Assembly (NCBI GenBank): GCA_964384105.1
Contig: CAYLJV010000001.1
Location: 288,001 to 352,000, forward strand
Direction of reading: 5' to 3'
Source of the DNA: Candidatus Hadarchaeota archaeon
GTDB lineage: Archaea > Hadarchaeota > Hadarchaeia > Hadarchaeales > JAGGTB01
Length of the DNA: 64,000 nt
Below, in pieces: positions 16,780-62,234 of the stretch (the stretch's first letter is position 1; the number at the start of each line of letters is the position of its first letter). Made by a program: the position numbers and the translations under genes. The notes below the pieces were generated by a model. It was not told the DNA's origin. It did no database searches and was given only the letters and a program-made list of their open reading frames with translations.

Positions 16780-16972
16780 GTCTAATAATTGTGGTAGGTG
16801 GAAAAATGGGAGATTTCTCCTTATTTTTCTAAATGCTTAAGCTTGACTATTTGATTAGATGCTAGCTTTTTTGTTCGATGAGGAATTTACCCGTGAAATT
16901 ATGGATTATAGGTAGATTGGCGAAGGCTTAAAATATTGAGACTGTTATTGTAGATTGACCAAGGGATTCTTT

Positions 16973-23949: not shown

Positions 23950-24020
23950 TTTAAATACCAAAACTAATTACTTGTAGGGATAATAAATATCTAGGCAATT
24001 GCGATAATGTAGAGGGTCCT

Positions 24021-38411: not shown

Positions 38412-39656
38412 TTAGAACTCGAAATTTTTGTATATCTGGTTTATTTCTTCTATCAGCTGGAATGGGTGTTTCTCTTTTTTCATTTTATCTTTCTGATGGG
38501 ATATTATCTTTGGAATTTTGCGTAAATTGTATGGGAGATTATGGCTTATGAAGTACGCTCCCAGATTTTTGAAAATTATAAGATCACCAATCTTCATATT
38601 CGGCATTTCTTTTGGTGTTTTTACCAGCCAATCTTCGGAGTGACACAAATTCCCGGCAATCTTCGATTTTACTAAGTTTTCGCTTTTAGAAATTACTTCA
38701 GGATAAGTTTCAGTTTCGTGTCTGTTTATCTTAACCATATCCTCGCTTCCGTCTACGATTATAGTCTTTTCACCATACATCTCTTTGATATTTACAGCGC
38801 TTACAACCAGCATTGTTGTCTTAGAGGCTAAAGACCTGCCAGGTTCTATAGCGAGTTCGAAATCACCTAGTTTGTTTCTCCACTTCTTCACTTCTTTGTC
38901 TATTTCTTTTCCAAATCTTTTCACTGGTTTTTCTTTATCGTGGGGATCAACCGGATATCCGCCACCAATATCCAAAATTTTCATGTTTATATTATTGGTA
39001 TTTGCAAAGTTCAGGACTTTATTTATTGCTTCGATGTAAAAGTGAGGACTCTCTATTTTCGATCCGAGGTGGAAATGAAAACCTGCAAAATCTAAATCTA
39101 ACTCCTTTATCTTTTTTAGAGCATTGTCAACTGAATCTTTGTCTTTACTAAAAAGGACTCCGAATTTGGATTCTTTCCCGGATGTACTCACTGCTGCTTT
39201 GACTTGCTCGATTGGTTGTGTTCTGAGTAGGACCTCCATATTTTTACTTTTCTCTGCTTTATCCAAAGCCTTAGAAAAATTCGATATACCATTTATTGAT
39301 CCTAAGACGAATCTTTTAACTCCTTTATTCAAGGCGTAAACGAACTCTTTTTCAGTTTCAGCTACGCTTGTATAGGTTACTCTATCTGATTTGCATTTAC
39401 TTATTTCTAGAAGCTTTAGTTCACCGGGAGAAAAAACGTCAAAGTAAGCCCCTAGATCTTGGAGTTTTTTCAAAATGGTTTGTGTGTAATTGGCTTTCAT
39501 TGCATAAGCTATTTTGGTGTTTTTCGGAAAAGAAGATTTTATCAAGTTAAATTGCTCTACTAGTCGGTCTATGTCCACTAAGTAGAGTGGTGTCCCATAT
39601 GTTTTTGACGCTCTTTTTATTATCTCGAGTTTTTCTTCAGACATTTTTTCTCCCAT
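38412..39656 (-). CDS. lysA: Fold-type III PLP decarboxylase, diaminopimelate decarboxylase-like
   Basis: YAMKAN (PLP Lys), SKFG, HFHLGS, DIGGG, EPGR, GNLC..ED, GAY. Substrate not certain. Confidence 0.65.
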   Translation of the reverse strand: MGEKMSEEKLEIIKRASKTYGTPLYLVDIDRLVEQFNLIKSSFPKNTKIAYAMKANYTQTILKKLQDLGAYFDVFSPGELKLLEISKCKSDRVTYTSVAETEKEFVYALNKGVKRFVLGSINGISNFSKALDKAEKSKNMEVLLRTQPIEQVKAAVSTSGKESKFGVLFSKDKDSVDNALKKIKELDLDFAGFHFHLGSKIESPHFYIEAINKVLNFANTNNINMKILDIGGGYPVDPHDKEKPVKRFGKEIDKEVKKWRNKLGDFELAIEPGRSLASKTTMLVVSAVNIKEMYGEKTIIVDGSEDMVKINRHETETYPEVISKSENLVKSKIAGNLCHSEDWLVKTPKEMPNMKIGDLIIFKNLGAYFISHNLPYNLRKIPKIISHQKDKMKKEKHPFQLIEEINQIYKNFEF

Positions 39657-44178: not shown

Positions 44179-44218
44179 ACGGGATTTTCTGAAACGAAAT
44201 TTATACAAAATTGAAAAA

Positions 44219-45475
44219 TTAGTTTGTAAAGGAATCCATGTTTTCAATAACTAGTTCTGCGAATTCACTACATTTGACCTTTTTACCACCATCTATATGG
44301 CGGTAAATGTCGTAGGTTACGGTCTTGTCTTTGATTGTTTTTTCCAAGGCATCTTTTACTAACTTTTGTGTTTTGTCCCAACCAATGTACTGTAACATAA
44401 TTCGCCCCGATAATATCTCCCCGGTAGGATTTACTTTGTCCTTTCCAGCGTATTTTGGAGATGATCCATGGGTAGGTTCGAATACACCTATTCCGTCTCC
44501 GATATTTGAACCAGGAGCTATACCTAATCCCCCGACTTGAGCCGCGGCAGCATCGCTTAAGTAATCTCCATTTAAATTTGGCATTGCGAGGATGTCATAG
44601 TCCGATGTTCTAGTTAGTAGTTGTTGTAGCATGTTGTCGGCTAATCTATCGTTGACTACTATCGTGTTCTCTGGGACATCTTCAGTCTTTTCTTCCCAGA
44701 GAGTGTTTTCAGTTACTACTTCGTCTCCATATTCGTCCACAACTTCGTAACCCCAGTCTCTGAATGCACCTTCAGTGAATTTCATTATATTTCCCTTGTG
44801 GACCAGAGTGACATACTTATATTGGTCTCTGTTCTCGAGAGCGTAATCTATAGCTTTCCTGACCAATCTTTTGGTTGCCCTCTCACTAATTGGTTTGAGA
44901 CCTATTCCAGAATCCGAAGTTACATTAACATCTAACTCATTTTTCAGAAACTCTCTAACTTTTTTAACTTCTTTCGAACCTCTCTCCCATTCTATCCCTG
45001 CGTATAGGTCTTCGGTATTTTCTCTGAATATTACCATGTCCATTTCTTCTGGATTTTTCATGGGTGAGGGGATACCCTCAAGATAATAGACGGGCCTTAC
45101 ACAGGCGTAGAGGTCTAGCTTTTGTCTTATTGCTACGTTCAGTGAGCGAAATCCTCCACCAACCGGAGTAGTCAGTGGTCCTTTCAGTGCTACCCTAAAT
45201 TCTTTTATAGCTTTCAGGGTTTCCTGCGGTAGGTATTCTCCGTAGATTTTCTTTGCTGCTTCTCCTGCATGTATATCCATCCAATGGATATCCTGTCCTG
45301 TTTTTTGTGCAGCTGCTTTTAGAACGTTTCTCGCTGCAGGACTGACATCTTTTCCAATTCCGTCGCCTTTTATCTGTGGAATTATGGGTTCTCTTGGAAC
45401 TACGAAGTTCTTACCGTCCCATTCTATTTTTTTACCCTCTTCGGGTGCCGAAATTTTTTGATAATTTCGAGTCAT
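44219..45475 (-). CDS. icd: NADP-dependent isocitrate dehydrogenase (E. coli-type)
   Basis: GDGIG, KGPLTTPVGGGFRSLNV, HKGNIMKFTEG, NLNGDY.SD, HGSSPKYAG and VTYD (NADP-type K/Y/Y). Confidence 0.93.
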   Translation of the reverse strand: MTRNYQKISAPEEGKKIEWDGKNFVVPREPIIPQIKGDGIGKDVSPAARNVLKAAAQKTGQDIHWMDIHAGEAAKKIYGEYLPQETLKAIKEFRVALKGPLTTPVGGGFRSLNVAIRQKLDLYACVRPVYYLEGIPSPMKNPEEMDMVIFRENTEDLYAGIEWERGSKEVKKVREFLKNELDVNVTSDSGIGLKPISERATKRLVRKAIDYALENRDQYKYVTLVHKGNIMKFTEGAFRDWGYEVVDEYGDEVVTENTLWEEKTEDVPENTIVVNDRLADNMLQQLLTRTSDYDILAMPNLNGDYLSDAAAAQVGGLGIAPGSNIGDGIGVFEPTHGSSPKYAGKDKVNPTGEILSGRIMLQYIGWDKTQKLVKDALEKTIKDKTVTYDIYRHIDGGKKVKCSEFAELVIENMDSFTN

Positions 45476-45535
45476 CGAACTCTACTGACTTTTAGAATTT
45501 TATGAGTTTAAAATCAATTGGAAGTTCAGAGGTGT

Positions 45536-46048
45536 TTATTCTTCCCACTGGAACTTTCCTTTCTTCTTGTACTGTTCTACTAATCCACCATCTTCGAGGA
45601 TCTGTATCAGAAAATCGGGCAGTGGATCTATGTCGTATGTTTTCCCTTTGTCTATATTCTTTAGTTTTCCAGCCCCCAAGTCAATTTCCAGTCTATCTCC
45701 CTCGTCCGTTTCGTCGGGAATTTCTTTACTTTCGATAACCGGGATGCCTACATTTATTGCATTTCGGAAAAATATCCTAGCGAAGAACTTTGCGATGATT
45801 GCCCCAACTCCCAATTCTTTTAGGACTTGCGGGGCCTGTTCTCTGCTTGATCCACATCCGAAATTTTCTCCTGCTACGATCACGTCTCCTTTTTCAACTT
45901 TGTCCGCGAAATCTGGGTCGGCGTCCTCCATTGCATGCTCCGATAATTTTTTCATGTCACGGATTTTGAACTTGTACTTCCCTGAGATTATCAGATCTGT
46001 GCTTATGTCATCTCCAAATTTCCAGGCTTTTCCCTCTATCTTTTCCAT
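45536..46048 (-). CDS. LeuD/HacB-family small subunit (putative aconitase or homoaconitase small subunit)
   Basis: GDDISTD.IISGKYKFK, NFGCGSSREQA, FARIFFRNAIN.G. Confidence 0.85.
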   Translation of the reverse strand: MEKIEGKAWKFGDDISTDLIISGKYKFKIRDMKKLSEHAMEDADPDFADKVEKGDVIVAGENFGCGSSREQAPQVLKELGVGAIIAKFFARIFFRNAINVGIPVIESKEIPDETDEGDRLEIDLGAGKLKNIDKGKTYDIDPLPDFLIQILEDGGLVEQYKKKGKFQWEE

Positions 46049-46049
46049 T

Positions 46050-47303
46050 TTAATCTACCTCTCTTGGATCGGTTATTTCCCCTTTGATTGCTGATGCGGC
46101 TACGGTTAGAGGTGAGCCTAAGTATATTTCGGCATCTTTGGAACCCATTCTTCCTTTGAAGTTCCTATTTGCAGAAGAGATGCATTTTTCCCCCGATGCT
46201 AATATGCCTTGGTGCGATCCGGCACATGGTCCACAACCGGGATTACCGACTATACAACCGGCTTCCATGAATATTTCCAATAAACCTGAATCGAGTGCTC
46301 TCATGTAAATCTCGTTTGATGCCGGAATGACGAGCATTCTGACGTCGGGGTGAACTTTTTTACCTTTTATAATCTCAGCAGCGACTTCTAGATCCTCGTA
46401 TCTTCCGTTGGTACATGTTCCAAGAAATGCCTGATCTATTTTTATGCCTTCCACTTCTGATATCGGTGATACATTGTCAACTTGATGAGGGCACGCAATT
46501 TGAGGTTCCATATCCCCGACTTCGAACTCAATTATTTCCTCGTATTCGGCGTCTTCGTCGTTTTTGGTTAGTTCGATTTTTCCCTTAACCCGTTCCTTTA
46601 GGAACTTTCTTATTTTTTCATCAGGCTCTACTATACCGGTCTTAGCGCCCATCTCGACTGCTAGGTTCGATAAAGTCATTCTTTCTCCTACACTCATATT
46701 TTCTATAGCCTGACCTGCATACTCGACAGCTTTGTAAGTAGCCCCTTCTGATCCTATTTCTCCAACTATTCTGAGTGCTAGGTCTTTCGACATGACCCTC
46801 TCCGGAAGTTCACCTAGGATCTGAAATTTCATAGTTTCTGGAACTTTGAACCATAACTTTCCGCTGAGGAAAACTCCGGCCATTTCAGTGGAACCTATTC
46901 CGGTACCAAAGGCTCCTAAGGCCCCGTAGGTACAGGTGTGGGAATCTGCCCCGGTAACTACAGTACTCGGTTTTACATGACCTTTTTCAGCCATTATCTG
47001 GTGGCATATCCCCTTCCCATAGTAGATGTTTTTTATATTATTTTCAGCAGCAAATTCTCTAATCGATTTGTGCATTTCGGAAGTTCCAACAGATGCACTC
47101 GGAACTGTGTGATCCATAACCAATACTATCTTTTCTGGATCCCAGACCTTACCCCCACCCATCTTTTCGATCGCTTCTATTGTAAGTGGCGCTGTCCCGT
47201 CTTGGGCCATCGCGGTTTCTATTTTTGCAGTTGTGTAATCTCCTGCATAAACATCGGAATCAGATGCTTTGCTTAGAATCTTTTCTGATATTGTTTTTCC
47301 CAA
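46050..47303 (-). CDS. LeuC/HacA-family large subunit (putative aconitase or homoaconitase large subunit)
   Basis: QDGT.PL, DH, GICHQ, GADSHTCT, GTCTNGR, PGCGPC.G, NRNFKGRMG. Confidence 0.85.
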   Translation of the reverse strand: MGKTISEKILSKASDSDVYAGDYTTAKIETAMAQDGTAPLTIEAIEKMGGGKVWDPEKIVLVMDHTVPSASVGTSEMHKSIREFAAENNIKNIYYGKGICHQIMAEKGHVKPSTVVTGADSHTCTYGALGAFGTGIGSTEMAGVFLSGKLWFKVPETMKFQILGELPERVMSKDLALRIVGEIGSEGATYKAVEYAGQAIENMSVGERMTLSNLAVEMGAKTGIVEPDEKIRKFLKERVKGKIELTKNDEDAEYEEIIEFEVGDMEPQIACPHQVDNVSPISEVEGIKIDQAFLGTCTNGRYEDLEVAAEIIKGKKVHPDVRMLVIPASNEIYMRALDSGLLEIFMEAGCIVGNPGCGPCAGSHQGILASGEKCISSANRNFKGRMGSKDAEIYLGSPLTVAASAIKGEITDPREVD

Positions 47304-47317
47304 TATAGTTCACCTAA

Positions 47318-48616
47318 TTATATCTCATATCCTGCTTCTTGAGCCCATTCCTTTAGTTCTTCATCTTCTAAGGGATGTCTCCTTTCTCCTTCTAGGAACT
47401 CGTTTTTTATTTTTTCTGTTAACTTTTTGAATTTAGTGTCTTTCATATCCACTTCTATGCCGAAAAGTTCCTCTAGTTTTGCCTTAACGGTATGTTTTCC
47501 CGATCTTTTTCCTATTCTTATCTGTCTTTTTGAGCCTACGAGCTCGGGTGGGAAAACCTCGTATGTCAATGGCAGTTTTTGTACTCCATGGACGTGAATA
47601 CCTGATTCGTGAGTGAAGGCAGCTTCTCCTATTATTGCTTTATCTACTGGCACGTGGTAGTTTATAGACGATGCCAAGAAGTCACTTAGTTCTCTGAAAT
47701 TCTGGAGATTCCACTTCTTGATGTCGTGATGCATGTAACAGTTCATTATGATTTTCTCCGTTTCTGCGTTTCCACATCGGTCTCCTATTCCGGAGAACGT
47801 AGTGCTCACATATACTTCATCGTAAAGTCCTGAAGCGGCCTTTATAGTAGCCCGAGTATTAGCTACCGCGTTTCCGAGGTCGTCATGTCCATGGAATTCC
47901 ACAGCAGATATATTAGTTTCATCATGAATATGCTTGACTTTTGCGGGAACCCCGTGAGGTAATGGGGCTTCGGGATCAGGCTTTCCGCAACCTACGGTGT
48001 CACATATTCTATATACTTCCGCTCCAGCGTCGGCTACGGCATTTATGAAGTTCTTTTCGAATTTCCAGTCTGCTCTAGTGCTGTCCTCCCCGTGCACGAA
48101 TATCCTCAACCCGTGGTCCTTTGCGTATTCGACGGCTTCGACTACTCGTTCGACTAAAGTTTTTGGATCTTTATCTTCCCATTTTTTGAAATGTAAATGG
48201 GACACGGGGTGTGATATTCCGATTTGTTTGAATCCTAATTCTAGTGCTGAGTCTATGTCCAGTTTTTTAGCTCTACACCAAGCGGCTATTATGTCTCCCA
48301 GGCCTTCATCCTGCATCCTTTTGACCCCCTCTTTGTCAGATCGGGCGTACGTGAGAACTTCTATTCTTTCTACGCCGATTTCTCTGAGCAAGACGGCTAT
48401 TCTGGTTGCTTCGGCGGGTGAGGGTGAGATAATACCGGGCATTTGAAGCCCTTCTCTCAATGTGGTATCGTCTATAATTACGTCTACGTCGAGAGGTTGG
48501 GGATTATAGGTTAATTTTTTGAGTTCTTCCCACTTACTGGGGTCAAATTCGAGGGTGCTGAGATTCTCTACCTTTTTTATAAAGTCTTCTTGTTTTCTCT
48601 CTGGATTTTCAACCAT
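47318..48616 (-). CDS. DRE-TIM metallolyase, Re-citrate synthase-like
   Basis: DTTLREGLQ, H.ED.TRAD, RICDTVG.G....PLP.GVP, EFHGHDD, GIGDR.GN, HESGIH; no LeuA regulatory domain. ATG 48616 follows GGAGG. Confidence 0.72.
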   Translation of the reverse strand: MVENPERKQEDFIKKVENLSTLEFDPSKWEELKKLTYNPQPLDVDVIIDDTTLREGLQMPGIISPSPAEATRIAVLLREIGVERIEVLTYARSDKEGVKRMQDEGLGDIIAAWCRAKKLDIDSALELGFKQIGISHPVSHLHFKKWEDKDPKTLVERVVEAVEYAKDHGLRIFVHGEDSTRADWKFEKNFINAVADAGAEVYRICDTVGCGKPDPEAPLPHGVPAKVKHIHDETNISAVEFHGHDDLGNAVANTRATIKAASGLYDEVYVSTTFSGIGDRCGNAETEKIIMNCYMHHDIKKWNLQNFRELSDFLASSINYHVPVDKAIIGEAAFTHESGIHVHGVQKLPLTYEVFPPELVGSKRQIRIGKRSGKHTVKAKLEELFGIEVDMKDTKFKKLTEKIKNEFLEGERRHPLEDEELKEWAQEAGYEI

Positions 48617-48772
48617 GTTAGGTCCTCCAATAAATTGATATTCGGATATCTTTCCCTTGTTTTTAGTTTTTAATATATAATTAATTGTCTGTTTTCTCCG
48701 ACAAAGTTTTGAATAAAGATGAAACATAAATACCTCTTGATTAAACAGAAGTAGGGTAAAAGAAAACGTCGT

Positions 48773-48909
48773 GCTGGGGTGGCGCAGTAGGTAGCGCGCT
48801 CGGCTGTTAGGTTAAGGCATGGATGAAGAGCGAACCTCCATCTTGTAAACTTGACATGCCGGAAAATGCGGCAACCGAGCGGTCGGAGGTTCGAGTCCTC
48901 CCCCCAGCG
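48773..48909 (+). tRNA. tRNA-Asn(GTT) with a 64-nt intron at 37/38 (intron 48810-48873)
   Basis: Acceptor GCTGGGG/CCCCAGC, G73, anticodon stem CTCGG/CCGAG with CT-GTT-A, T arm GGAGG-TTCGAGT-CCTCC. BHB with TAG and CAA bulges around CTGT/GCGG. Confidence 0.93.
48816..48860 (+). ncRNA. Intron-encoded K-turn / box C/D-like RNA (putative)
   Basis: GGCATG/CATGCC stem, 3-nt GAT bulge, tandem GA/AG pairs from a C-like box ATGAAGA (48823-48829) and a D-like box TTGA (48851-48854). Confidence 0.55.
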
Positions 48910-49049: not shown

Positions 49050-49826
49050 TTACTGCTCTTCTATTCGGTAAGTTCCATCGTAATCGATAAATTCGATTAT
49101 TTCCCGGTCTCTCAGAACTTGTAATTGCTGTCTTATTTTAGCTTTGATATGTTTATTTTCCGGATGTTGTTTTTTTAACTGCTCTTTGAACTTATAAATA
49201 TCTTGAAGGGTAAAAATCTCCTTATCTAGCTTTCTAACATATCTGAGTACATCGTTTAACCATCCTTTTGAGGACAACTCTTCTTCTTCCATGAATTCAA
49301 ATTTTTTCCAATATTTTCTAACTTTGGGTTTGGGTAGAATTTCTCCATCTCTAATTATATAAAGAAAAGCGTCTTCGGGAAATTTATTTAATAATATGTT
49401 TGAGCCTTTCCATCCTGATCTCCTGGCATCGTCAGATAATGGTTTTCTTTCTTCAACAGCTTCTAAAGTCATGAAGTGTTTTGGTAGGATCATTAATTCT
49501 TCTACAGTGTATTGCTTGATATCATATCTCAAGAATACCCAATTTGGGGAAAGGCCTTTTTTAATTCGTTTAATTTTGGTATTATACTCCGAATTGGCTA
49601 CTTTATTCCCAAAACTTCTGGATTTAGCTTTTAATTGAAATGTTTCTTCACAGCTAGGACAAATAAAATCCTTAACTTCGGTATTCTCAGGTAATTTTTT
49701 TACTTTGTCGGAATCACAAGCTGGACAATACATCTCTTCCTTGAACCAAGCTTCTGTCAAAACTCTAGCTATCTGTGATTTTGATTTATAATCTTCTGCT
49801 TTTGATTGGTCCATTGATAGTTTCAT
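49050..49826 (-). CDS. DpnI / Dam-replacing protein family methyl-directed endonuclease
   Basis: SQIARVLTE.W, CPAC...DF.CPSC...QLK, RKPLS..ARRSGW.G, C-terminal wH HP.N.HI.AKIRQQLQVLRD. ATG 49826. Confidence 0.88.
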   Translation of the reverse strand: MKLSMDQSKAEDYKSKSQIARVLTEAWFKEEMYCPACDSDKVKKLPENTEVKDFICPSCEETFQLKAKSRSFGNKVANSEYNTKIKRIKKGLSPNWVFLRYDIKQYTVEELMILPKHFMTLEAVEERKPLSDDARRSGWKGSNILLNKFPEDAFLYIIRDGEILPKPKVRKYWKKFEFMEEEELSSKGWLNDVLRYVRKLDKEIFTLQDIYKFKEQLKKQHPENKHIKAKIRQQLQVLRDREIIEFIDYDGTYRIEEQ

Positions 49827-49879
49827 TAAATTTTCGATGATATCTAAGAGTCTTTTCAATAAAAGGATTTTTAATTTGG

Positions 49880-52705
49880 TCAAAACTTGTTTTTTAGTAG
49901 ATTTTTTAAAGATTCCTTTGAAAGTGTTTTGAGTTTTCTGCAATTTCCTTGAGAAGTGTAGAGAATTTTCGCTGATATCTCTTTATTTTCAAATACTCCA
50001 TCAAGTGCATAATAATAAGCACTCAGCTGCTTTCGGTATTCCTCTTCATTAGTTCTTTCTTCATCCGTTTTGTAATCAACTATCTCTACTTTATCTCTCT
50101 CAACGTGAATCAGATCGATACATCCTTTCAGGACTATTCGCCTTCCATCAATTTCAAGCGGCAACAGACAAGTTTCCTCTACTATTAGATCTCCATTTAG
50201 TCCGTCCAAAAATTCTTTCACATTTTCCTCGTCAGAATTACTCGGTTTTACGTCTTCGCCCAAGCCGTAACGCTCGGCAAAGAGGTGAATTTTCTTGCCG
50301 TATTCTTCACCCTTTCCCGTCTTTGTTTCTACATTGAGCAAAGAACTTACAGGTACCTTGAGAGGAGATTTGTAAGGGGGTTTTTCGATTTTGAAATTCT
50401 CTATTTCTTTCTCTTCAGCCTTCACCCTTTTCGGTTCGATTTCTACCTCCGCCGATTCAATCTCGAGATTATCAAAGAACGGACTCGACCTGCCTATCTC
50501 GGAGCTCAAAAAGAGATATCTTTTGGCCCGGGTCATGGCCACGTACATTAGCCTCCTCTCCTCATCGTATTCTCCACTCAAGCATCGGTGCAGGATCTCC
50601 GTTCTCCAGTTATCGTAAATATAGGGCAACCCCTCGTCTCGGTAAATCTTCTTCTGTCTCAAACCTACTGGGTCCAGGTAATCTATTCTTCCACCCCCGC
50701 TACCACTGCTCGGAAATCTGGATTGATTAATATCGGAGACGAAAACTATCGGATGTTCGAGTCCTTTCTCCGCATGGATCGTACGGACTTTTACAACGTC
50801 TCCACTGCTACTGCTGTCTATCTCATATCTCGTATTATCTTCGATATTGTCCTCAATGAACTGCACAAGCCTTCCAGTGTTCATGTAAGTTCTCTTGAAA
50901 GTATTCTCGAGTATCTCGATAATCTTATCTGCGAAGGCGTTGGTGATACAGTATCGGTCGAAGACTCTTCTGGCAACGGCTGAAATGCTATCAATACCCC
51001 CAAGCTCCTTTCTGAAATCAATCATGTTTTTTGGATAATCTCTATTCTTCAAGATATACCTAGTTTCATCAAGGTTGTAACCGGCCTCTTCAAGAACTAC
51101 AGCCCAACCCCTTTTCGAATTTTCGTAGTTAAGGATTCTCAGCCATGCAAGAAGAATTATTGCCGGGTCGGTTTTGAAGAGTTCGGTACCACCCTCATAT
51201 ACGAGAGGGATACCATATGTTCTCCCTAATCTCTGAAGTTCTAGACCGAACTTAGAGGTCCGCGTTAGGATAACTATGTCACTGTAAGTTGGCTCTCTGA
51301 ACTTACCTTCTTCTCCGATAAGATAATTTGAATTTCCCACGATCTCTTGAATTTTTCCAAGAACCAACTTTTTTTCATCCTTACTCTTAAATGCCTCTAT
51401 CTTGGTTGGTCCTTTCATTTTCTCGCTCGACTCTAGTGAGGTGATTTCTTTCATTATCTCTTCTTTATCTAAACTCTCTTTCTTGGTAGCCTCGAGAATC
51501 AGGCTCTGTTCGGAAAATTTGAGTATCTCCTGAGAGGATCGATAATTTACCTTCAAGGGGATTTCTTTAACATTATCTACTTGATAACCGATTCGAGAGT
51601 AGTCCTCGTTAAGCTCCCGTCTGTATCTTTTCAATCTCTTCTCGAATTTTCTAATGTTGTCTACGTCCGCGTACTGGAAGGAGTAGATGCTTTGCTTCCA
51701 GTCTCCGACGGCGCAGATATTTGGACGGTTGGTGAGAAGTAGTGCGAGTTTGAGCTGGATCTCGCTCGTGTCCTGAAACTCATCAATCATGATATAGTCG
51801 TAACCGAGTTCCTTTCGTAGATCATGGTCTTCGCAGAGCAGAATGTAAGCGAACATAAGCAGAAAGTCAAAGTTGAGATAGTTTCTGTTCAGAGCGTACT
51901 TTATATATTCATAGTATACGTCGTGAACGAATCCTTTCAGATCTTCTCTATCTTCAAGAAATGCTTTCTCCGAAATTTCTTCGGGGACCTGCTTGCACCT
52001 AGAACCTCTGACCTCTACTGGTTCGGGTGCTCCTTCAGGGAAGCACTTATTTTTATATCCATTCAGCCGGGCCCGGAGTTCGGACTGTCTGTTTCCCTCG
52101 TTCTCCGGTTTGTTGACCTTTTTGAACAATTTTCCAAATTCCTCGAAATCGCCTTCGAGATAACTCTCCCCGTTCTGGTACCATCCGTCTTGAGTGGGAA
52201 ATATTCCCTTGGAGGCGAGTTTTTTGATCAAGTTTAACAGATTTTTAAAATCGTAGATTATTCTATAGTAATCTACATATTTTTGATTGTTATCTATAAA
52301 ACGGTTCATGAACCTTCTGAACTCCAGCCTTTCGAGAATCTCATTCTCGATAATGTTAGTTGAAGAAGTAATACTGTCTTGGATTCCTATAAGCTTCGGA
52401 GCTCCAAAACCGTGTGTTTTTATTATTCTGTTGCAGAGACTGTGAAAAGTGCAGATAGGTGCTTCTCTGAGTTCTCCTGGCCTGCGGTCTTTACAGAGAC
52501 TTATCACTTTCTTTTTCATTTCCTCGGCGGCGTTTTTTGTGAAGGTGACAAGGAGCAAGTCTTCTGGGTCTATATCTCGCTCTTGAAGGATATGGGCGTA
52601 TCTTCTTGTCACGGCAAAGGTCTTGCCAGTTCCCGCTCCTGCATCTACAAGATAGATACCATCTATATTTTCAATCAGCTCTTGTTGTTGCTCATTCGGT
52701 TTCAT
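49880..52705 (-). CDS. UvrD-type SF1 helicase with C-terminal PD-(D/E)XK nuclease (AddA-like)
   Basis: AGAGTGKT, TFT..AA, DEFQD, GD.KQSIY, NYRS, TIH..KGLE, EERRL.YVAMTRAK; nuclease G.IDL...DYKT...QL..Y. Confidence 0.9.
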   Translation of the reverse strand: MKPNEQQQELIENIDGIYLVDAGAGTGKTFAVTRRYAHILQERDIDPEDLLLVTFTKNAAEEMKKKVISLCKDRRPGELREAPICTFHSLCNRIIKTHGFGAPKLIGIQDSITSSTNIIENEILERLEFRRFMNRFIDNNQKYVDYYRIIYDFKNLLNLIKKLASKGIFPTQDGWYQNGESYLEGDFEEFGKLFKKVNKPENEGNRQSELRARLNGYKNKCFPEGAPEPVEVRGSRCKQVPEEISEKAFLEDREDLKGFVHDVYYEYIKYALNRNYLNFDFLLMFAYILLCEDHDLRKELGYDYIMIDEFQDTSEIQLKLALLLTNRPNICAVGDWKQSIYSFQYADVDNIRKFEKRLKRYRRELNEDYSRIGYQVDNVKEIPLKVNYRSSQEILKFSEQSLILEATKKESLDKEEIMKEITSLESSEKMKGPTKIEAFKSKDEKKLVLGKIQEIVGNSNYLIGEEGKFREPTYSDIVILTRTSKFGLELQRLGRTYGIPLVYEGGTELFKTDPAIILLAWLRILNYENSKRGWAVVLEEAGYNLDETRYILKNRDYPKNMIDFRKELGGIDSISAVARRVFDRYCITNAFADKIIEILENTFKRTYMNTGRLVQFIEDNIEDNTRYEIDSSSSGDVVKVRTIHAEKGLEHPIVFVSDINQSRFPSSGSGGGRIDYLDPVGLRQKKIYRDEGLPYIYDNWRTEILHRCLSGEYDEERRLMYVAMTRAKRYLFLSSEIGRSSPFFDNLEIESAEVEIEPKRVKAEEKEIENFKIEKPPYKSPLKVPVSSLLNVETKTGKGEEYGKKIHLFAERYGLGEDVKPSNSDEENVKEFLDGLNGDLIVEETCLLPLEIDGRRIVLKGCIDLIHVERDKVEIVDYKTDEERTNEEEYRKQLSAYYYALDGVFENKEISAKILYTSQGNCRKLKTLSKESLKNLLKNKF

Positions 52706-55283
52706 ATGTACCGCCTAAGATGAGATCTCTATTTTCCAAAATGTCGAGGTCAACATCCCCAATCGGGAAACCCTCTTTTTTGTATTCGTTCAAATTTTCG
52801 AGTTGTTTTGATAGGAATTCTTCGAATCTATCCAGGTCCTCTTTGAAGTAGTTTCTCAGCCGGAAACCGCAGAGTTTCTTCAATGTACTTCTGCACCCAT
52901 TTTTGACGTACTTATATTCTCCTACTATTCCCTGACTGTAACTGATGTATTCCTGGGATACTTCGGATCTCAGAAGCTCGTTCTTGTCGTACTCGTGGGG
53001 TAATTCTACATTCTTGAAAAAAGACCTGTAACTCGAATAACCTAATTTTTCCAGAGTCTTTCTTCTATTATTACTTTCACTTACACCCTCTATCAGGTAA
53101 TTGAAGGTTTTTCGCTCGGCTATTTGATCCGAAAAATTTCTTGGATAATAGGTGACAGTCTCAATGTTTTCTTGAATATTCGCATCACCTACAATAACAT
53201 TCTCTAAGTTATCCAGGAAGTGAAAGAAGCTGAACTTTAACTTTTCCCCAGGTCTAGCCATCCTGTGGTGCGCCAGATATAGAATCGCCTGAAAATCTGG
53301 GTCCTCCTCGAAAAGCTCTACGTTAGAGTTTCTAACGATAGACATGGAGCTATTTTTCTTCCCGCTCTTGTAGTCCACGAGATGATTCTTATCTAATATT
53401 AGGTCAACCTTTCCCTTAGCGCCTAACTCTGAATTTTCGAACCAGGCCTCTGTTATCTTGTCTTCGACACTTTTGTCGAAGTGATCTGCGAAAAAGTTAT
53501 CCCAAGACTTTTTCTTGTAATCTTCCAACTCTGAACTTTCGATGTCTCCTCTTTCCAGAAATTCAATGATATTTTCGATGCCTATTCTGATTTTGGTCTT
53601 AAGGATCTCTACCATGAAATTATCTATGAATGGATTCAGTTTTCCTGTCATAAGCTCCACGAATTTCTCATAACCTCTCTCCTCGACGAATTTTGGGTGA
53701 TTTACGTAGAATTCGGCGAAGTCGTGGAAGAGGGAACCCATCTTGAGATAGTGATTGTCCTCCATGGGTACCACCTGCGAAAAGAAGTATTCTTTTGGAC
53801 ACTTCACCAGTTTATTTAAGTCTGTCTGACTGATCACGTCAACCGGTTTGATTTTTATTTCATAATCCTCCTTTTCGAAGGCCGTTCTCTTTTCCTCGAC
53901 AGCTCCGGAATAATTCTTGTGGGGAAGGTCTGTGAAAGTATCAAACTCTTCCTCGAGGATCTCGTCGAAGTAGAGACATGGTGTGATATCGTTTCCCATT
54001 TCGCTATCTCTCACTAGAAAATGTTGTCGCTCGCCGTTCTGTAGCAGCAGTTCGAAATTTTTCAAGTTTTTTATTTCAAAATCCCTTTTGTCTGTCCACG
54101 GTTTTTCGGGACTATCGTGTTCCCATTCAGAGTCCATCCCTAGATAAAATACTATGGGGCGATCCACGAATGAGGATGACTTAGGTGAAGCCAATAGAAT
54201 ACCAATTTCTGAGTCACCTACTTGAATGTCGAAAGAATCGAAGTAGTATTCTAATCTATTCACATTTTCTTCCGTAATTCTCTCGTTCAGAATATCTACT
54301 TCTTCAAGTTTTTCTCGAACTCCCGAAATCTTTCTTCCTATCAATTCCTCGTATTTATTGACTATATCTTCGAATGTGAGTTCTTCAATATTGGAGATTA
54401 AGTTCTTGACTTTGTCTAACTCGCTGATTTCTAAATCTGCTAGGAATTCTCTGTTGTGTTTGATCGAAACATTTGTATTGAGACTTTTGAGGATAGGTTG
54501 AATATCTCTCAATCTGAGACGTCTTCCCGAAAGGCCGGATTTTAGGATAAACAAAATCGTCCTAAAGTCGTCGTTCTCGGAGAAGTCCTTACCCAGCATG
54601 AACGGAATGTTTTCGGAACGTAAGAGAGAACGGAGGAGTGGGGTGTATTCGCTATCTGGACTAACTACGATTGCTAAGTCTTCGGCATTTTCCCTGTTAA
54701 TATTCTTTCTTATGGCTTGGAGGATATCTGTTACGGTTCCAAATACTTTGAATTCTGGTAATTTTCTTTTTTTATTTTCAAAGACATTCACGACATCGTA
54801 CTTTTCCGGTATGACTTTCATATCCAGCTTGTTAAATTGGTAAGGGGCTATTACTGCTAATGAGTTCTCTTTCTCTTGTTCAAAATTTTCCATGGCACTG
54901 TAAATGTTAGGAGTTCTTTCTATGATCCTAATGATTTCACGAGTGGTTTTGCTATCAAATCGGTTGTATTCGAGGATTTTTTGTAATTCTCCAGTATTTT
55001 TCCAACAGTCTAATATATTTTCTAAAAGGTAGAATGCCTCTTTCCATGAAATATCAATTTCTCGAATAACTTTAATAAATAGCTGTCTCTCATCTGCGAT
55101 TTCTTTATTTCCGTTTTTACTGTAGGCTAATCTCTTTGGAGTGATTGCGAACTCTCCCAGGTGCGGACTCTGAATTCTATTGTTAAGGGCATCGGCTAAA
55201 GGAGCTTCAACCGTGAGAACCAAGTCGTAGTCCTTAACCTTTTCATATATATGGTCAATCCCGATAGCTTTTCTAATTTTCAA
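52692..55283 (-). CDS. AddB-like subunit: degenerate helicase body plus PD-(D/E)XK nuclease
   Basis: No Walker A. S...L.....CP..YFF, G..FH, GKVDL...DYKSG, FQA..Y; overlaps the AddA-like start. Confidence 0.78.
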   Translation of the reverse strand: MKIRKAIGIDHIYEKVKDYDLVLTVEAPLADALNNRIQSPHLGEFAITPKRLAYSKNGNKEIADERQLFIKVIREIDISWKEAFYLLENILDCWKNTGELQKILEYNRFDSKTTREIIRIIERTPNIYSAMENFEQEKENSLAVIAPYQFNKLDMKVIPEKYDVVNVFENKKRKLPEFKVFGTVTDILQAIRKNINRENAEDLAIVVSPDSEYTPLLRSLLRSENIPFMLGKDFSENDDFRTILFILKSGLSGRRLRLRDIQPILKSLNTNVSIKHNREFLADLEISELDKVKNLISNIEELTFEDIVNKYEELIGRKISGVREKLEEVDILNERITEENVNRLEYYFDSFDIQVGDSEIGILLASPKSSSFVDRPIVFYLGMDSEWEHDSPEKPWTDKRDFEIKNLKNFELLLQNGERQHFLVRDSEMGNDITPCLYFDEILEEEFDTFTDLPHKNYSGAVEEKRTAFEKEDYEIKIKPVDVISQTDLNKLVKCPKEYFFSQVVPMEDNHYLKMGSLFHDFAEFYVNHPKFVEERGYEKFVELMTGKLNPFIDNFMVEILKTKIRIGIENIIEFLERGDIESSELEDYKKKSWDNFFADHFDKSVEDKITEAWFENSELGAKGKVDLILDKNHLVDYKSGKKNSSMSIVRNSNVELFEEDPDFQAILYLAHHRMARPGEKLKFSFFHFLDNLENVIVGDANIQENIETVTYYPRNFSDQIAERKTFNYLIEGVSESNNRRKTLEKLGYSSYRSFFKNVELPHEYDKNELLRSEVSQEYISYSQGIVGEYKYVKNGCRSTLKKLCGFRLRNYFKEDLDRFEEFLSKQLENLNEYKKEGFPIGDVDLDILENRDLILGGTYETE

Positions 55284-56908: not shown

Positions 56909-57448
56909 ATGAAAGAAATTAGAATTCATGGTAGAGGTGGTCAAGGTTCAGTGACGATGTCTCGATTGTTGGCACAGGCCGCTTTCGAGGATGGAATGTG
57001 GGCTCAAGGGTTCCCCTCTTTTGGTGTTGAGAGATTGGGAGCACCGGTAGTTGCTTTTACACGAATCGATGATAAGAAAATTACAGATAGAAGTCAGGTC
57101 GAAGAGCCTGATTACGTAATTATTCAGGACCCGACGCTTATTGGATTGGTCAATGTACTCGAAGGATTGAAGGACGACGGAATGATTCTCGTTAATACCG
57201 AGAAGTCACCAGAAAAACTAGGATTGGACACCAAGGCTAAGGTCGTCACCGTTGATGCTACTAACATAGCATTAGAGCATCTAGGAAGACCGATAATGAA
57301 TACTGCTTTAGCTGGAGCTTTTGCTGGAGCGAGTGGAATGATCGAAAAAGATAGTCTTAATAAAGTGGTTAAGAGAAATTTCCCCGGTAAGATCGGAGAA
57401 AAGAATGTTAATGCAATAAACGCTGCTTATGAAAAGGTGGTGAAGTAA
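56909..57448 (+). CDS. porG: Pyruvate:ferredoxin oxidoreductase gamma subunit
   Basis: [25 protein letters not shown]. Confidence 0.92.
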
Positions 57449-57733
57449 ATGGTTAAAGATCCATACAAAAAGTTGAAGTTAACCAAGGGCGCGATAGTTG
57501 CACCTTGTACGACTTTAGCGAATAAGACAGGTAGTTGGAGAACTTTCCGACCTATTGTGGATCATGAAAAGTGCATATCCTGCGGAACTTGTGAGAAGTT
57601 CTGTCCGGATATGGCGATAAAGGATGTCGGAGAAGGTAGATACGAAGTAGACCTAGATTATTGCAAAGGTTGCGGAATATGTGCCGAAGAATGTCCAGTT
57701 GATGCGATAGAAATGAAGAAGGAGGAGAAATAA
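57449..57733 (+). CDS. porD: Pyruvate:ferredoxin oxidoreductase delta subunit (2x[4Fe-4S])
   Basis: KTGSWR..RP, CISCGTC...CPD, YCKGCGICAEECP. Confidence 0.93.
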   Translation: MVKDPYKKLKLTKGAIVAPCTTLANKTGSWRTFRPIVDHEKCISCGTCEKFCPDMAIKDVGEGRYEVDLDYCKGCGICAEECPVDAIEMKKEEK

Positions 57734-58957
57734 ATGGCTGATGCTGTTTTAATAGGATTTGATGCGGTTGCGAAAGCAGTCAAGCCCTGCGATCCTGATG
57801 TCATCTCGGCGTATCCAATTACGCCGCAGACCGATATCGTTGAGCACTTGGCTGATATGGTAGCCGACGGTGAGCTCACTAGCGAGTTTATCAAGGTAGA
57901 TAGTGAATTTAACGCTGCATCCACCTGTATAGGTGCGAGCGCAGCAGGCGCACGAGTTTTCAGCGCAACGAGTTCTCAAGGCCTTAAGCTGATGAGCGAA
58001 GTGCTCTTCAGTGCTTCTGGAATGAGATTGCCATTGGTTCTTGCAGTTGCCAATAGAAGTCTTTCAGCACCCCTCAGTATATGGAACGACCATACAGATT
58101 CCTTTGCTGAGAGGGATGGAGGGATGATCCAGTTCTACGCTGAGGATGTACAGGAAGCGATGGACAATGTGGTAATGGCTTACAAAGTTGCCGAGGACAA
58201 AGATATCTCTCTTCCAGCTCTTGCTTGCTTGGATGGGTTCATATTGACTCATGTCCAGGAACCCGTTGAGACCTTCACTCGTGAAGAAGTCTTGGAGTTC
58301 CTTCCGGATAGAGAGCCCGAATTTACATTGGACCCTTCTAATCCGACGACTTTCGGTGCCTATGCACGACCAGAACACTGGGCAGAGTCCAGATATATGG
58401 TACATAAAGCACAGATGAAGGCAAAGGACAAGATAGCAGATGCGGTTAAGGATTTCGCAGATGTATTTGGCAGAGAATACGGTCTTGAAAACAGAGGTCT
58501 TGTAGAAACTTACAGAGCTGAAGATGCAGATGTTCTACTTCTGTCGCTAGGAAGTGTTTGTGGAACGATAAGGTCGGTAATTGACGAATACAGAGAGAAG
58601 GGTGAAAAAGTAGGCCTTGTCAAACTTAGAGTTTACAGGCCATTCCCTGTTGAGGAGCTCAGAGAGATTCTAGATGGTGCGAAAGCACTAGCGGTTTTGG
58701 AAAAGGATATTTCAGTAGGTTACCAAGGTGCTTTAGCAATTGACGTTAAGTCAGCTTTGTACCCAACTGGTGTAAGGTTGCCGATACTGAACTTCATAGT
58801 TGGTCTTGCGGGCCGAGATGTTTCCAAGAATAACATCAGAAACGTGATAGAGAAGACTAAGGACTTCGCAGAGAAAGGAACTCACGAAATGAACTTCGAC
58901 GAAGAAGAATATTGGGAGCCCCTCAAAAGAGAGCTACTACCCGAAGGAGTTGATTAA
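57734..58957 (+). CDS. porA: Pyruvate:ferredoxin oxidoreductase alpha subunit
   Basis: AYPITPQT, SE, TSSQGL, ANR.LSAP.SIW.DH.D, DGF.L.H. Confidence 0.93.
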   Translation: MADAVLIGFDAVAKAVKPCDPDVISAYPITPQTDIVEHLADMVADGELTSEFIKVDSEFNAASTCIGASAAGARVFSATSSQGLKLMSEVLFSASGMRLPLVLAVANRSLSAPLSIWNDHTDSFAERDGGMIQFYAEDVQEAMDNVVMAYKVAEDKDISLPALACLDGFILTHVQEPVETFTREEVLEFLPDREPEFTLDPSNPTTFGAYARPEHWAESRYMVHKAQMKAKDKIADAVKDFADVFGREYGLENRGLVETYRAEDADVLLLSLGSVCGTIRSVIDEYREKGEKVGLVKLRVYRPFPVEELREILDGAKALAVLEKDISVGYQGALAIDVKSALYPTGVRLPILNFIVGLAGRDVSKNNIRNVIEKTKDFAEKGTHEMNFDEEEYWEPLKRELLPEGVD

Positions 58958-58959
58958 AA

Positions 58960-59925
58960 ATGGCTACAGAAGCTAAAGAACTAGAGACTGATAAAAAGTT
59001 TAAGCACGAGGAAGATCTTTACTGTTCAGGGCATAGAGCTTGCCCGGGCTGTGGAGCAGCTCTAGCTTGTAAATACGTCACAGAGGCTACAGGTCCTAAT
59101 ACGATAATAGCCATGCCTACCGGATGTATGGAGGTAACTTCTACTCCATTCCCCGAGAGTGCATGGGGTGTAAGCTGGATACACAATCTCTTCGAAAATG
59201 CAGCATCGATTGCGTCTGGTGTTGAAACGGCTTACAAGTCGTTCAAGAAGAGAGGTGTAAAGAAGCGCGGCGATAAGACTTTCATGGACTACGACGATGT
59301 GAATTTCGTGGCATTAGCTGGAGACGGATCTACTTTCGATATAGGGATCAGAGCCCTAAGTGGTATGCTCGAGAGAAGGCATGATGTGCTCTACATCTGC
59401 TACGACAACGAAGCTTACATGAATACTGGTATACAGAGAAGTGGGTCTACCCCGCTCGGTGCGAGTACTACGACAAGTCCTGCCGGTGATGTTAGTTACG
59501 GTGAGGATATCCACAAAAAGGATATGCCGAAGATTGTGGCTGCGCATGGAGTGGAATACGTGGCAACTGCGAACATAGCTTATCCTGAGGACTTCAAAGC
59601 TAAGATAGAGAAAGCGCTTAAGATAGAGGGGCCTAAGTACATACAAGTTTTTGCACCGTGTCCAAGAGGTTGGAGACACGAGGCACAGAACGTAGTGAAA
59701 ATAGCTCGAATGGCTCACGAAACGGCAGTTTACCCGATATACGAGATGGAAAACGGCGAAATAACCAAAGTGAAGAAGATAAAAGATCGCAAGCCGGTTG
59801 AGGAGTACCTTAAGTTGCAAGGAAGATTCAAGCATCTCTTCAAGAAAGAAGGTGGAGAGAAAGTCATCAAAGAGATTCAGAGAGTTGCTGACCAGAACGC
59901 AAAGAACCTTGATCTAGAAAAATAG
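58960..59925 (+). CDS. porB: Pyruvate:ferredoxin oxidoreductase beta subunit
   Basis: GHRACPGCG, TGCMEV, GDG...DIG, DNEAYMNTG.QRS, PCPRGW. Confidence 0.93.
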   Translation: MATEAKELETDKKFKHEEDLYCSGHRACPGCGAALACKYVTEATGPNTIIAMPTGCMEVTSTPFPESAWGVSWIHNLFENAASIASGVETAYKSFKKRGVKKRGDKTFMDYDDVNFVALAGDGSTFDIGIRALSGMLERRHDVLYICYDNEAYMNTGIQRSGSTPLGASTTTSPAGDVSYGEDIHKKDMPKIVAAHGVEYVATANIAYPEDFKAKIEKALKIEGPKYIQVFAPCPRGWRHEAQNVVKIARMAHETAVYPIYEMENGEITKVKKIKDRKPVEEYLKLQGRFKHLFKKEGGEKVIKEIQRVADQNAKNLDLEK

Positions 59926-62233: not shown

Positions 62234-62234
62234 T

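Follow-up and report, generated by a model that had tools for sequence, protein, structure and literature searches.

We describe here a four-gene operon in a 64,000-nucleotide stretch of the genome of a Candidatus Hadarchaeota archaeon (NCBI GenBank assembly GCA_964384105.1, contig CAYLJV010000001.1, positions 288,001 to 352,000 of the forward strand; hereafter the window). The operon probably encodes an anabolic oxidative branch, in which oxaloacetate and acetyl-CoA would be converted via citrate and isocitrate to 2-oxoglutarate for glutamate synthesis. It lies on the minus strand and consists of four genes, namely a short condensing enzyme of the LeuA/NifV superfamily (SYN; 47318-48616, 432 aa from the ATG at 48616), a LeuC/HacA-type large subunit (LSU; 46050-47303, 417 aa, TTG start), a LeuD/HacB-type small subunit (SSU; 45536-46048, 170 aa) and an Escherichia coli-type NADP-dependent isocitrate dehydrogenase (Icd; 44219-45475, 418 aa). 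From gene context, the LSU/SSU pair is predicted with high confidence to be the aconitase of this cell, and SYN is a likely citrate synthase. An earlier interpretation, made from the letters without database searches (hereafter the sequence-only reading), had proposed a Re-citrate synthase, a LeuCD-type aconitase and Icd as an operon; the open reading frame (ORF) coordinates agree with it on four co-oriented genes with intergenic gaps of 14, 1 and 60 bp.

Genomic context of the hydratase pair

The assembly that contains the window (1.62 Mb, 12 contigs, 90.2% complete) holds two aconitase-family loci only, namely leuC of the ilv-leu cluster and LSU; no AcnA, AcnB or fused form was found in it, as the sequence-only reading had anticipated. 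That reading had also anticipated that Si-type citrate synthase (Si-CS) would be absent, and here it was wrong. A Si-CS gene is located at C1:208925-209971, 79 kb from the operon, with scores of 411.5 bits against PF00285 and 490.9 bits against TIGR01800 (cut-off, 421.3), and it stands solitary among unrelated genes. Given that Si-CS and Icd are both present, yet the aconitase family is represented by leuC and LSU only, an aconitase is needed in this organism.

The locus was compared among 66 genomes of the phylum, seven of which belong to the MSBL1-like genus of the window and 59 of which lie outside it. Note that MSBL1 is placed within Hadarchaeota in the accessible text of a preprint (bioRxiv 10.1101/2024.09.30.615893). 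None of the 66 genomes yielded an AcnA. Si-CS was found in all seven members of the genus but not in the 59 other genomes. In five of the six congeners, Si-CS was located directly upstream of the LSU orthologue (72-77% identity by tblastn), with about 20-30 bp between the two genes. The gene order was Si-CS-LSU-SSU-Icd in G054, G050 and G053 (with Si-CS in two pieces in G053), Si-CS-LSU-SSU in G052, where no Icd match was found within the fetched stretch, and Si-CS-LSU at a contig end in G051; in G049, Si-CS was solitary and LSU-SSU was located on another short contig. The Icd proteins of the congener operons are 76-79% identical to that of the window. The conservation survey called for by the sequence-only reading thus places the hydratase after Si-CS in five of six congeners, with Icd following in three of those. 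Because the orthologous pair is flanked in sister species by a canonical citrate synthase and a typical Icd, LSU/SSU very probably acts as an aconitase, and this context is the strongest argument for that assignment short of an assay. Together with the count of aconitase-family loci and the lack of AcnA across the phylum set, it upholds the earlier proposal that a LeuCD-type pair serves as the aconitase of the cell.

The Si-CS genes of two congeners showed oddities. That of G051 (C79:4658-5704) holds an in-frame TGA, and that of G053 (C42:6689-7893) is the one in two pieces; these may reflect sequencing error, decay or recoding.

Properties of LSU and SSU

LSU scored 626.4 bits against the hacA_fam model, 553.3 bits against HacA_Meth (cut-off, 550) and 507.2 bits against LEU2 (TIGR02083; cut-off, 610.65). 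SSU scored 211.8 bits against LEUD_arch, 213.8 bits against HacB2_Meth (cut-off, 230), 164.6 bits against HacB (cut-off, 230) and 192.1 bits against TIGR02084 (cut-off, 245.85). LSU and SSU exceed the broad subfamily models TIGR02086 and TIGR02087, and SSU exceeds no equivalog cut-off. In a methanogen-type HacAB, both subunits would be above the equivalog cut-offs, and here LSU is and SSU is not. Nor does the pair look like a LeuCD of leucine synthesis, since it falls below the respective equivalogs, carries a basic loop and is located outside the leucine cluster. It also differs from single-chain, four-domain aconitases, being made of two subunits that reach 94.7-109.5 bits against AcnA models with cut-offs of 686-945, and 332 bits against PRK07229 with a cut-off of 612. 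We regard the pair as aconitase-like in function and not as a member of the AcnA or AcnB families.

According to the accessible text of PMC7308503 (citing Jeyakanthan et al. 2010), substrate preference in this family is set by a loop of the small subunit and not by the GSSRE motif. The superfamily motifs themselves are present in the translations, with GTCTNGR and GCGPCAG, which contain the Fe-S cysteines, in LSU, and GCGSSREQAP, which contains GSSRE, in SSU. The solved structures closest to SSU are 3vba (M. jannaschii isopropylmalate isomerase (IPMI), 168.8 bits), 1v7l (P. horikoshii LeuD) and 2pkp (M. jannaschii homoaconitase (HACN)). The loop of SSU reads G-K-Y-K-F-K, and the corresponding loops read A-R-Y-L-V-Y(T) in IPMI MJ1277 (3vba), G-R-Y-N-L-T(K) in P. 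horikoshii LeuD (1v7l), G-P-Y-L-R-T(T) in HACN MJ1271 (2pkp) and GRYLID in the window's leuD at 18229; both window loops are as the sequence-only reading had given them. In the alignment to 2pkp, SSU shows Y-K-F-K and not the Y-L-R-T of HACN, whose loop residues are numbered Arg26 and Thr27 of MJ1271.

The G-K-Y-K-F-(K/R) loop was found in all seven synthase-linked small subunits and in none of 28 LeuD-type copies (eight aligned alongside and 20 further ones). Furthermore, the Y-K-F loop is present in 115 of the best 120 database homologues of SSU. The homologues with this loop come from Hadarchaeota/MSBL1, Methanomethylicia, Bathyarchaeia, Hecatellales and Nitrososphaerota, at 57-100% identity, and the database names of SSU homologues are almost all '3-isopropylmalate dehydratase (small subunit)'. 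Among the fetched LeuD copies, no rule was seen that separates the LeuD loops of one-copy genomes from those of two-copy genomes.

The condensing enzyme

SYN is made of an HMGL-like domain (PF00682, 151.4 bits) and an HCS_D2 domain (PF22617, 74.5 bits), and it has no LeuA C-terminal regulatory domain. It falls under all NCBIfam cut-offs, with 283.5 bits against the isopropylmalate synthase (IPMS) subfamily model (cut-off, 517), 273 bits against nifV (TIGR02660; cut-off, 462.9) and 227.1 bits against the LysS-type model TIGR02146 (cut-off, 413.55). The pattern CDT.G.G...PLP.GVP...EFHGHDD, on which the sequence-only reading had based its assignment, does occur in the protein, as the string CDTVGCGKPDPEAPLPHGVPAKV...VEFHGHDD. 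Three HMGL-like synthases are encoded in the genome, namely SYN and two full-length LeuA/CimA paralogues of 501 and 526 aa at 22381-23961 and 24021-25526.

In a comparison with 1.84 billion representatives, SYN scored 642 bits with its own cluster, followed by 445, 327, 269 and 227 bits and then a plateau at about 200. The four nearest clusters, built at 50% identity, are archaeal where named (Lokiarchaeota, Altiarchaeales). The best named relative, at 74% identity, comes from an MSBL1 single-cell genome and is followed by Hadesarchaea at 60-68%; metagenomic relatives, one of which comes from an MSBL1 single-cell genome, reach 74-79%. Among bacteria, the closest family is P0127, at 37% identity to SYN; it consists of proteins from Firmicutes and Dictyoglomus that are named homocitrate synthase. 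The names of 20 representative clusters and of the relatives of this best bacterial match gave labels of this kind only, and none belonged to an organism with a verified Re-citrate synthase. A search of the ESM Atlas returned the generic family only. In addition, a 556-aa protein from JGI (P0121), 54% identical to SYN, is by its JGI name fused to an Lrp-family DNA-binding domain.

A FastTree phylogeny was built from 149 sequences and 372 columns and rooted on the two LeuA paralogues of the window, with representatives shorter than 320 or longer than 560 aa excluded. In this tree, SYN belongs to a 10-tip clade (support 0.995) that is nested in a NifV-like group of 72 tips (support 0.978). A His in H-G-E-D is common to the SYN clade; the residue at this place is Gly or Ala in NifV-like proteins and Ser or Ala in LeuA proteins. 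The clade also shares an insertion of about nine residues (PDPEAPLPHGVP) after C-D-T-V-G, which corresponds to the 'PLP.GVP' pattern. Among the 150 listed representatives (147 aligned), this His and the insertion are confined to the nearest archaeal clusters. The best bacterial family does not carry the insertion, so that the likeness to clostridial Re-citrate synthase drawn from the pattern is without support in a comparison that contains no verified enzyme. A nine-sequence alignment of the SYN clade has 78 invariant columns, all of which SYN retains.

We also examined the positions at which LysS-type homocitrate synthases bind their substrate. In these enzymes, His103, Arg163 and Ser165 (numbering of S. 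pombe Lys4) bind the distal carboxylate of 2-oxoglutarate. SYN has Trp, Phe and His aligned to the His, Arg and Ser/Thr of the LysS type. Representatives of the NifV-like group likewise carry the Trp and do not have the Arg at these positions; because the Trp is common to NifV-like proteins, the residues of SYN rule out the LysS type only. The use of this Trp as a mark against 2-oxoglutarate as substrate was dropped for the same reason.

Dehydrogenase partners of SYN

The dehydrogenase of the window is assigned to the NADP-dependent isocitrate dehydrogenases by its score above the curated cut-off (TIGR00183 prok_nadp_idh, 631.1 bits; cut-off, 567.3), and it carries GGGFRSLNVAIR (G-G-G-F-R-S-L-N) with the Ser-x-Asn substrate motif. 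The earlier description of this protein as an E. coli-type, NADP-dependent Icd with RSLN therefore stands. Since SYN occupies, in the window's genome, the operon place that Si-CS takes in the congeners, SYN probably makes citrate as well.

SYN orthologues (57-68% identity) were found in 45 of the 65 other phylum genomes and in none of the six congeners, two of which show 39% identical paralogues only. We fetched 20 of the 45 loci, picked by contig span and family spread. Six of them have the order SYN-LSU-SSU-dehydrogenase, six have leuC-leuD-SYN-dehydrogenase-leuB and six have SYN-dehydrogenase; one has leuC-leuD-SYN followed by a 334-aa dehydrogenase, and in one SYN is cut by the contig end. 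A dehydrogenase thus adjoins SYN in 19 of these 20 loci, all outside the genus, and it is of isocitrate type in 18. The partner dehydrogenases are mostly 357-373 aa long (one frame extends to 445) and 42-46% identical to the Icd of the window. All 16 that were aligned, two with a false 768-aa frame being left out, contain G-F-R-S-V-N-V-A, the Ser-x-Asn isocitrate signature; the 334-aa enzyme carries R-S-V-A. When seven partners were scanned, the top NCBIfam models were those of isocitrate dehydrogenase, below cut-off, for six, and that of homoisocitrate dehydrogenase for the 334-aa enzyme. One partner compared with the PDB matched NAD-dependent isocitrate dehydrogenase best (371.7 bits), ahead of the homoisocitrate dehydrogenase of Thermus (267.8 bits).

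Two further arrangements were observed in the phylum. In G025, G022 and G024, SYN is paired with an isocitrate-type dehydrogenase, and one LeuCD-type enzyme only was found. Its LeuD (loci L159, L160 and L162, adjacent to the sole LeuC found) has four extra residues in the loop, which reads G-R-Y-L-P-K-F-E-A-T-H, and the enzyme might work in leucine synthesis as well as in the citrate branch. In G062-G065 (family f5; e.g., G062:C2:412942-414123), the same pair stands without a linked hydratase, and the genomes carry a further aconitase-family frame (636-735 aa; 35-37% identity with LSU), possibly a clostridial-type fused aconitase.

A wider scan for SYN relatives, with one genome per species, gave at least 505 loci, the best 80 of which were analysed; at least eight of the 80 are on contigs that are also in the phylum locus set. 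All of the best 80 are archaeal, from Hadarchaeota, Wolframiiraptor and other Nitrososphaeria, many Bathyarchaeia, Hecatellales, Freyarchaeota and Brockarchaeota. Dehydrogenase neighbours were found in 20 of the 80, with the motif R-S-V-N in 12 loci, (R/K)-S-V-A in five loci of the Wolframiiraptor group, and R-S-V-S, P-S-V-A and the Icd-type R-S-L-N in one locus each. In Bathyarchaeia, the SYN relative is located mostly amid unrelated genes, and this, together with the varied dehydrogenase motifs, suggests that function in the wider clade is possibly mixed. Our claim of citrate synthesis is accordingly made for the Hadarchaeota members of the clade, and for the SYN of the window especially. 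In L077, L078, L080, L081 and L083, from Wolframiiraptor and other Nitrososphaeria, the gene after the SYN orthologue (61-63% identity) encodes a dehydrogenase of 340-358 aa that carries (R/K)-S-V-A-V in place of R-S-V-N-V, and the dehydrogenase of L078 scores about equally against solved isocitrate and homoisocitrate dehydrogenases.

Replacement of enzymes within the genus

The module of SYN, YKF-loop hydratase and isocitrate-type dehydrogenase looks ancestral in the phylum. In the genus of the window, the dehydrogenase of about 360 aa was likely replaced by the E. coli-type Icd, and in most species SYN was likely replaced by Si-CS. The window's genome is then likely an intermediate that has kept both synthases, with the old SYN in the operon and Si-CS elsewhere. 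Note that this order of replacement is a parsimony argument over related genomes and not a rooted test. At lenient E-values, no remnants were found of Si-CS upstream of the SYN of the window, or of SYN in the congener loci.

A broader proposal would extend this history. LeuA-family (Re-type) citrate synthases would have a third clade, that of SYN, which is archaeal. In Hadarchaeota, this synthase and a dedicated YKF-loop LeuCD-type aconitase would be the ancestral and main way of making 2-oxoglutarate, and the same would probably apply to many Bathyarchaeia, Nitrososphaeria, Methanomethylicia and Asgard archaea. Metabolic reconstructions of these uncultured lineages would then lack a citrate synthase and an aconitase only through artefacts of annotation, and the MSBL1-like genus would show a stepwise replacement of the route by Si-CS and E. 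coli-type Icd caught midway. We consider the chances for and against this proposal to be evenly balanced.

Metabolic setting and proposed pathway

The organism has other genes for the pathways to which LeuA- and LeuCD-type enzymes usually belong. A separate leuCD is located at 16955-18705 in the ilv-leu cluster, and the genome encodes two members of the Iso_dh family, leuB and Icd. Leucine and isoleucine synthesis are therefore covered by the two full-length LeuA/CimA paralogues and the separate leuCD-leuB. A lysA-like gene is located at 38412-39656 (TIGR01048, 214 bits, under the cut-off of 297.9); the presence of both this gene and a separate leuCD in the window had already been recorded. 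No lysW, mcrA or nifD was found in the genome at 90.2% completeness, and thus it contains no known user of homocitrate or 2-oxoadipate. As dapB is present and lysW was not found, lysine is presumably made by the diaminopimelate route. lysW was over its cut-off in none of the 66 phylum genomes, which gave two weak matches, in agreement with the sequence-only reading that an α-aminoadipate (AAA) lysine route is lacking. The glutamate-directed branch foreseen by the same reading is consistent with a glutamate dehydrogenase and an archaeal-type phosphoenolpyruvate (PEP) carboxylase in the genome, and with the finding of no succinyl-CoA synthetase beta subunit (sucC) over the cut-off.

In the pathway we propose, SYN would condense acetyl-CoA with oxaloacetate, on the Re-face if the analogy with LeuA-family citrate synthases holds; Re-citrate synthases are typically dependent on Mn2+ or Co2+ and sensitive to oxygen. 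LSU/SSU, as a [4Fe-4S] hydro-lyase, would then convert citrate via cis-aconitate to isocitrate, a function suggested by gene context, and the basic Y-K-F-K loop of SSU may bind the gamma-carboxylate of cis-aconitate. NADP-Icd would yield 2-oxoglutarate, which could enter glutamate through glutamate dehydrogenase. Oxaloacetate could be supplied by the archaeal PEP carboxylase and acetyl-CoA by ferredoxin oxidoreductases. As for the latter, two 2-oxoacid:ferredoxin oxidoreductase clusters are located side by side on the plus strand at 56909-59925 and 60551-63083, one of the multi-subunit POR/VOR type and the other of a two-subunit type with a fused gamma-alpha. The earlier suggestion that the operon is fed by the nearby POR is not supported beyond a distance of 8-15 kb, on the opposite strand.

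Alternative explanations

Several findings weigh against the pathway proposed above. The top family scores of SYN are those of the IPMS and NifV models, the sources label its relatives homocitrate or isopropylmalate synthase, and the closest bacterial family is just 37% identical to it, in a comparison that includes no verified Re-citrate synthase. S-V-A takes the place of S-V-N in the partner dehydrogenase of G055 and of the five Wolframiiraptor/Nitrososphaeria loci among the 80, and 60 of the best 80 wider-clade loci, mostly from Bathyarchaeia, have neither a dehydrogenase nor a hydratase as neighbour, so the wider SYN clade may not be uniform in function. LSU is, if barely, above the NCBI cut-off of the methanogen homoaconitase equivalog (553.3 vs 550). 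The flanks of the congener operons are unlike those of the window, and the shared position is therefore one within the operon and not on the chromosome. Finally, the genome's own Si-CS makes SYN unnecessary for citrate, and SYN could act otherwise.

Part of this evidence would suit an elongation of 2-oxoglutarate, with SYN as homocitrate synthase, LSU/SSU as homoaconitase and the dehydrogenase acting on homoisocitrate to give 2-oxoadipate for AAA lysine, coenzyme B or a cofactor. Besides the score of LSU against HacA_Meth, this reading can draw on the matches of SYN to the nifV and LysS models (273 and 227 bits), on its nesting in the NifV-like group, on the JGI name 'homocitrate synthase NifV' given to some of its relatives and on the S-V-A dehydrogenases of some other lineages. 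We nevertheless consider it improbable. SYN is under every homocitrate synthase cut-off, its W, F and H differ from the H, R and S/T of LysS-type enzymes, whose roles are those given above, and the loop of SSU is YKFK, not YLRT. The dehydrogenase is an equivalog-level NADP-Icd, and in the congeners Si-CS stands at the operon position of SYN. Possible users of the product are also missing, with lysW, mcrA and nifD not found in the genome, dapB present, and lysW over the cut-off in 0 of 66 phylum genomes. A reversal of the module, in which 2-oxoglutarate would be converted via isocitrate and citrate to acetyl-CoA and oxaloacetate in a reversed oxidative tricarboxylic acid (TCA) cycle for carbon fixation, seems very remote. 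Citrate synthase is reversible in some anaerobes, and the two ferredoxin-dependent 2-oxoacid oxidoreductase clusters of the window would fit such a cycle; however, no succinyl-CoA synthetase beta subunit was over the cut-off, NADP-Icd, glutamate dehydrogenase and PEP carboxylase suit an anabolic branch, and the data show no sign of a full cycle.

A closer competitor accepts the hydratase and Icd as proposed and lets Si-CS alone supply citrate, with SYN being an outgoing relic or acting on another substrate. The genome does encode Si-CS, and SYN is missing from all six other species representatives, indicating that it is dispensable in the genus. On the other hand, SYN is intact, keeps all 78 clade-invariant columns and heads the operon with a Shine-Dalgarno-like GGAGG, and the metagenomic relatives at 74-79% identity (one from an MSBL1 single-cell genome) indicate that the lineage retains it. 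Moreover, all 59 genomes outside the genus lack Si-CS, and most have SYN beside an isocitrate-type dehydrogenase. We therefore judge a relic or unrelated SYN to be unlikely, if somewhat less so than the elongation of 2-oxoglutarate, and retain an oxidative branch from oxaloacetate and acetyl-CoA to 2-oxoglutarate, headed by SYN, as the probable function of the operon.

Operon signals, assembly and flanking genes

The open frame of SYN extends to 48727, beyond the ATG at 48616. The start at 48616 is favoured by the GGAGG 8 nt upstream, by the length of relatives (434-442 aa) and by a tRNA gene on the opposite strand at 48773-48909. Each of the first three starts has a Shine-Dalgarno-like string ahead of it (GGAGG, TAGGTGA and GAGAGGT). 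In the upstream region of the operon (48617-48772, minus strand), a TATA-like AT-rich stretch, TTATATAT, is located about 60 nt before the start and, judged from the letters, is a putative promoter. Directly after the stop codon of Icd, the T-rich stretch TTTTTCAATTTTGTATAAATTT (44190-44218, minus strand) is a possible archaeal oligo-T terminator. The SYN/LSU junction is bridged without difference by the Logan contigs X1 (47033-48365), X2 (46117-47551) and X3 (47192-47464), indicating that the gene order is not an assembly artefact. Note that these contigs come from three runs of one study, and that one run may be the source sample. No RNA run was listed among the sequencing runs that hold this DNA.

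The tRNA gene (137 nt, plus strand) lies between the operon and a DpnI-like gene and has room for an intron of about 60 nt; it scored 56.3 bits against Rfam RF00005 (E 2e-11), and ARAGORN made no call. Immediately upstream of the operon, the region 49050-55283 (minus strand) encodes a DpnI-like methyl-directed restriction endonuclease, a UvrD-type helicase/PD-(D/E)XK protein (941 aa) and a PD-(D/E)XK protein (863 aa), the latter two forming an AddAB-like pair. Elsewhere in the window, a B12-dependent ribonucleotide reductase is split over two ORFs at 9019-9822 and 9903-11138 (both minus strand), about 80 bp apart and matching positions 2-311 and 346-606 of the NrdJ model; a split gene, a frameshift or an intein trace could each account for this. 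TFB, topoisomerase VI and aCPSF1 are also encoded in the 64-kb window and mark the organism as an archaeon.

Significance and comparison with known systems

If the proposed pathway is true, three genes that the sources treat as leucine or homocitrate genes, under the names '3-isopropylmalate dehydratase', 'isopropylmalate/homocitrate synthase' and 'hypothetical protein', would open the way to glutamate in a subsurface phylum of cosmopolitan distribution, and metabolic reconstructions that find neither a citrate synthase nor an aconitase in it would be mistaken on trivial grounds. The YKF loop, found in 115 of the best 120 homologues, would offer a simple sequence mark for re-annotating the small-subunit family. 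The genus would also provide a natural swap experiment, with a Si-type or LeuA-type first gene ahead of the same hydratase genes, and thus a data point on the exchange of roles among the hydro-lyase and synthase families of leucine, lysine and the TCA cycle.

In the literature we could search, which covered few subscription journals and no supplements, we found no paper that assigns an aconitase function to a LeuCD-type heterodimer, and nothing on this module or on a Re-citrate synthase in Hadarchaeota. According to the accessible text of PMC12016533, Re-citrate synthase (EC 2.3.3.3), a member of the LeuA family, is established in Firmicutes, Chloroflexota and Thermodesulfobacteriota and falls into two clades that are about 28% identical, one of the C. 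kluyveri/Syntrophus type and the other of the Thermoanaerobacter X514/Dehalococcoides/Heliomicrobium HM1_2993/C. difficile type; for archaea, that text cites its use in Ignicoccus only. Some clostridia may hold both Si and Re enzymes, as given in the accessible text of PMC11964587 (citing Li et al. 2007). SYN resembles the Re-citrate synthases of strict anaerobes in its LeuA/NifV-family fold without a regulatory domain, in the frequent misnaming as homocitrate or isopropylmalate synthase, in its place in an oxidative branch to 2-oxoglutarate and in the possible coexistence with a Si-type enzyme. Unlike the two known clades, it falls in a separate clade that is so far all-archaeal (best 80 of at least 505 loci), no verified enzyme such as CKL_0973, SYN_02536, cbdbA1708 or HM1_2993 being among the sequences compared, and this clade has the HGED His and the PDPEAPLPHGVP insertion of about nine residues.

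In gene order, the operon resembles a clostridial cluster for Re-citrate synthase, aconitase and Icd, C. acetobutylicum CAC0970-0972. The same three steps stand there in the same order in one operon and would lead to glutamate via the oxidative branch in an anaerobe. The aconitase of the clostridial cluster is one fused polypeptide of about 640 aa of the PRK07229 type, whereas two LeuCD-like subunits are found here, with 332 bits against the PRK07229 cut-off of 612. These subunits share the heterodimeric fold, the GSSRE motif and the Fe-S cysteines with methanogen HacAB (MJ1003/MJ1271), IPMI (MJ0499/MJ1277) and P. horikoshii LeuD. The loop of SSU (Y-K-F-K) differs from those of HACN (Y-L-R-T) and IPMI (Y-L-V-Y), and unlike those of methanogen HacAB, the genes are located between citrate synthase and isocitrate dehydrogenase in an organism in which Mcr and LysW were not found. 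The pathway logic is thus known from anaerobic bacteria, and the novelty lies in a synthase clade of archaea, in a YKF-loop hydratase split into two subunits and in a first gene that was exchanged within one genus.

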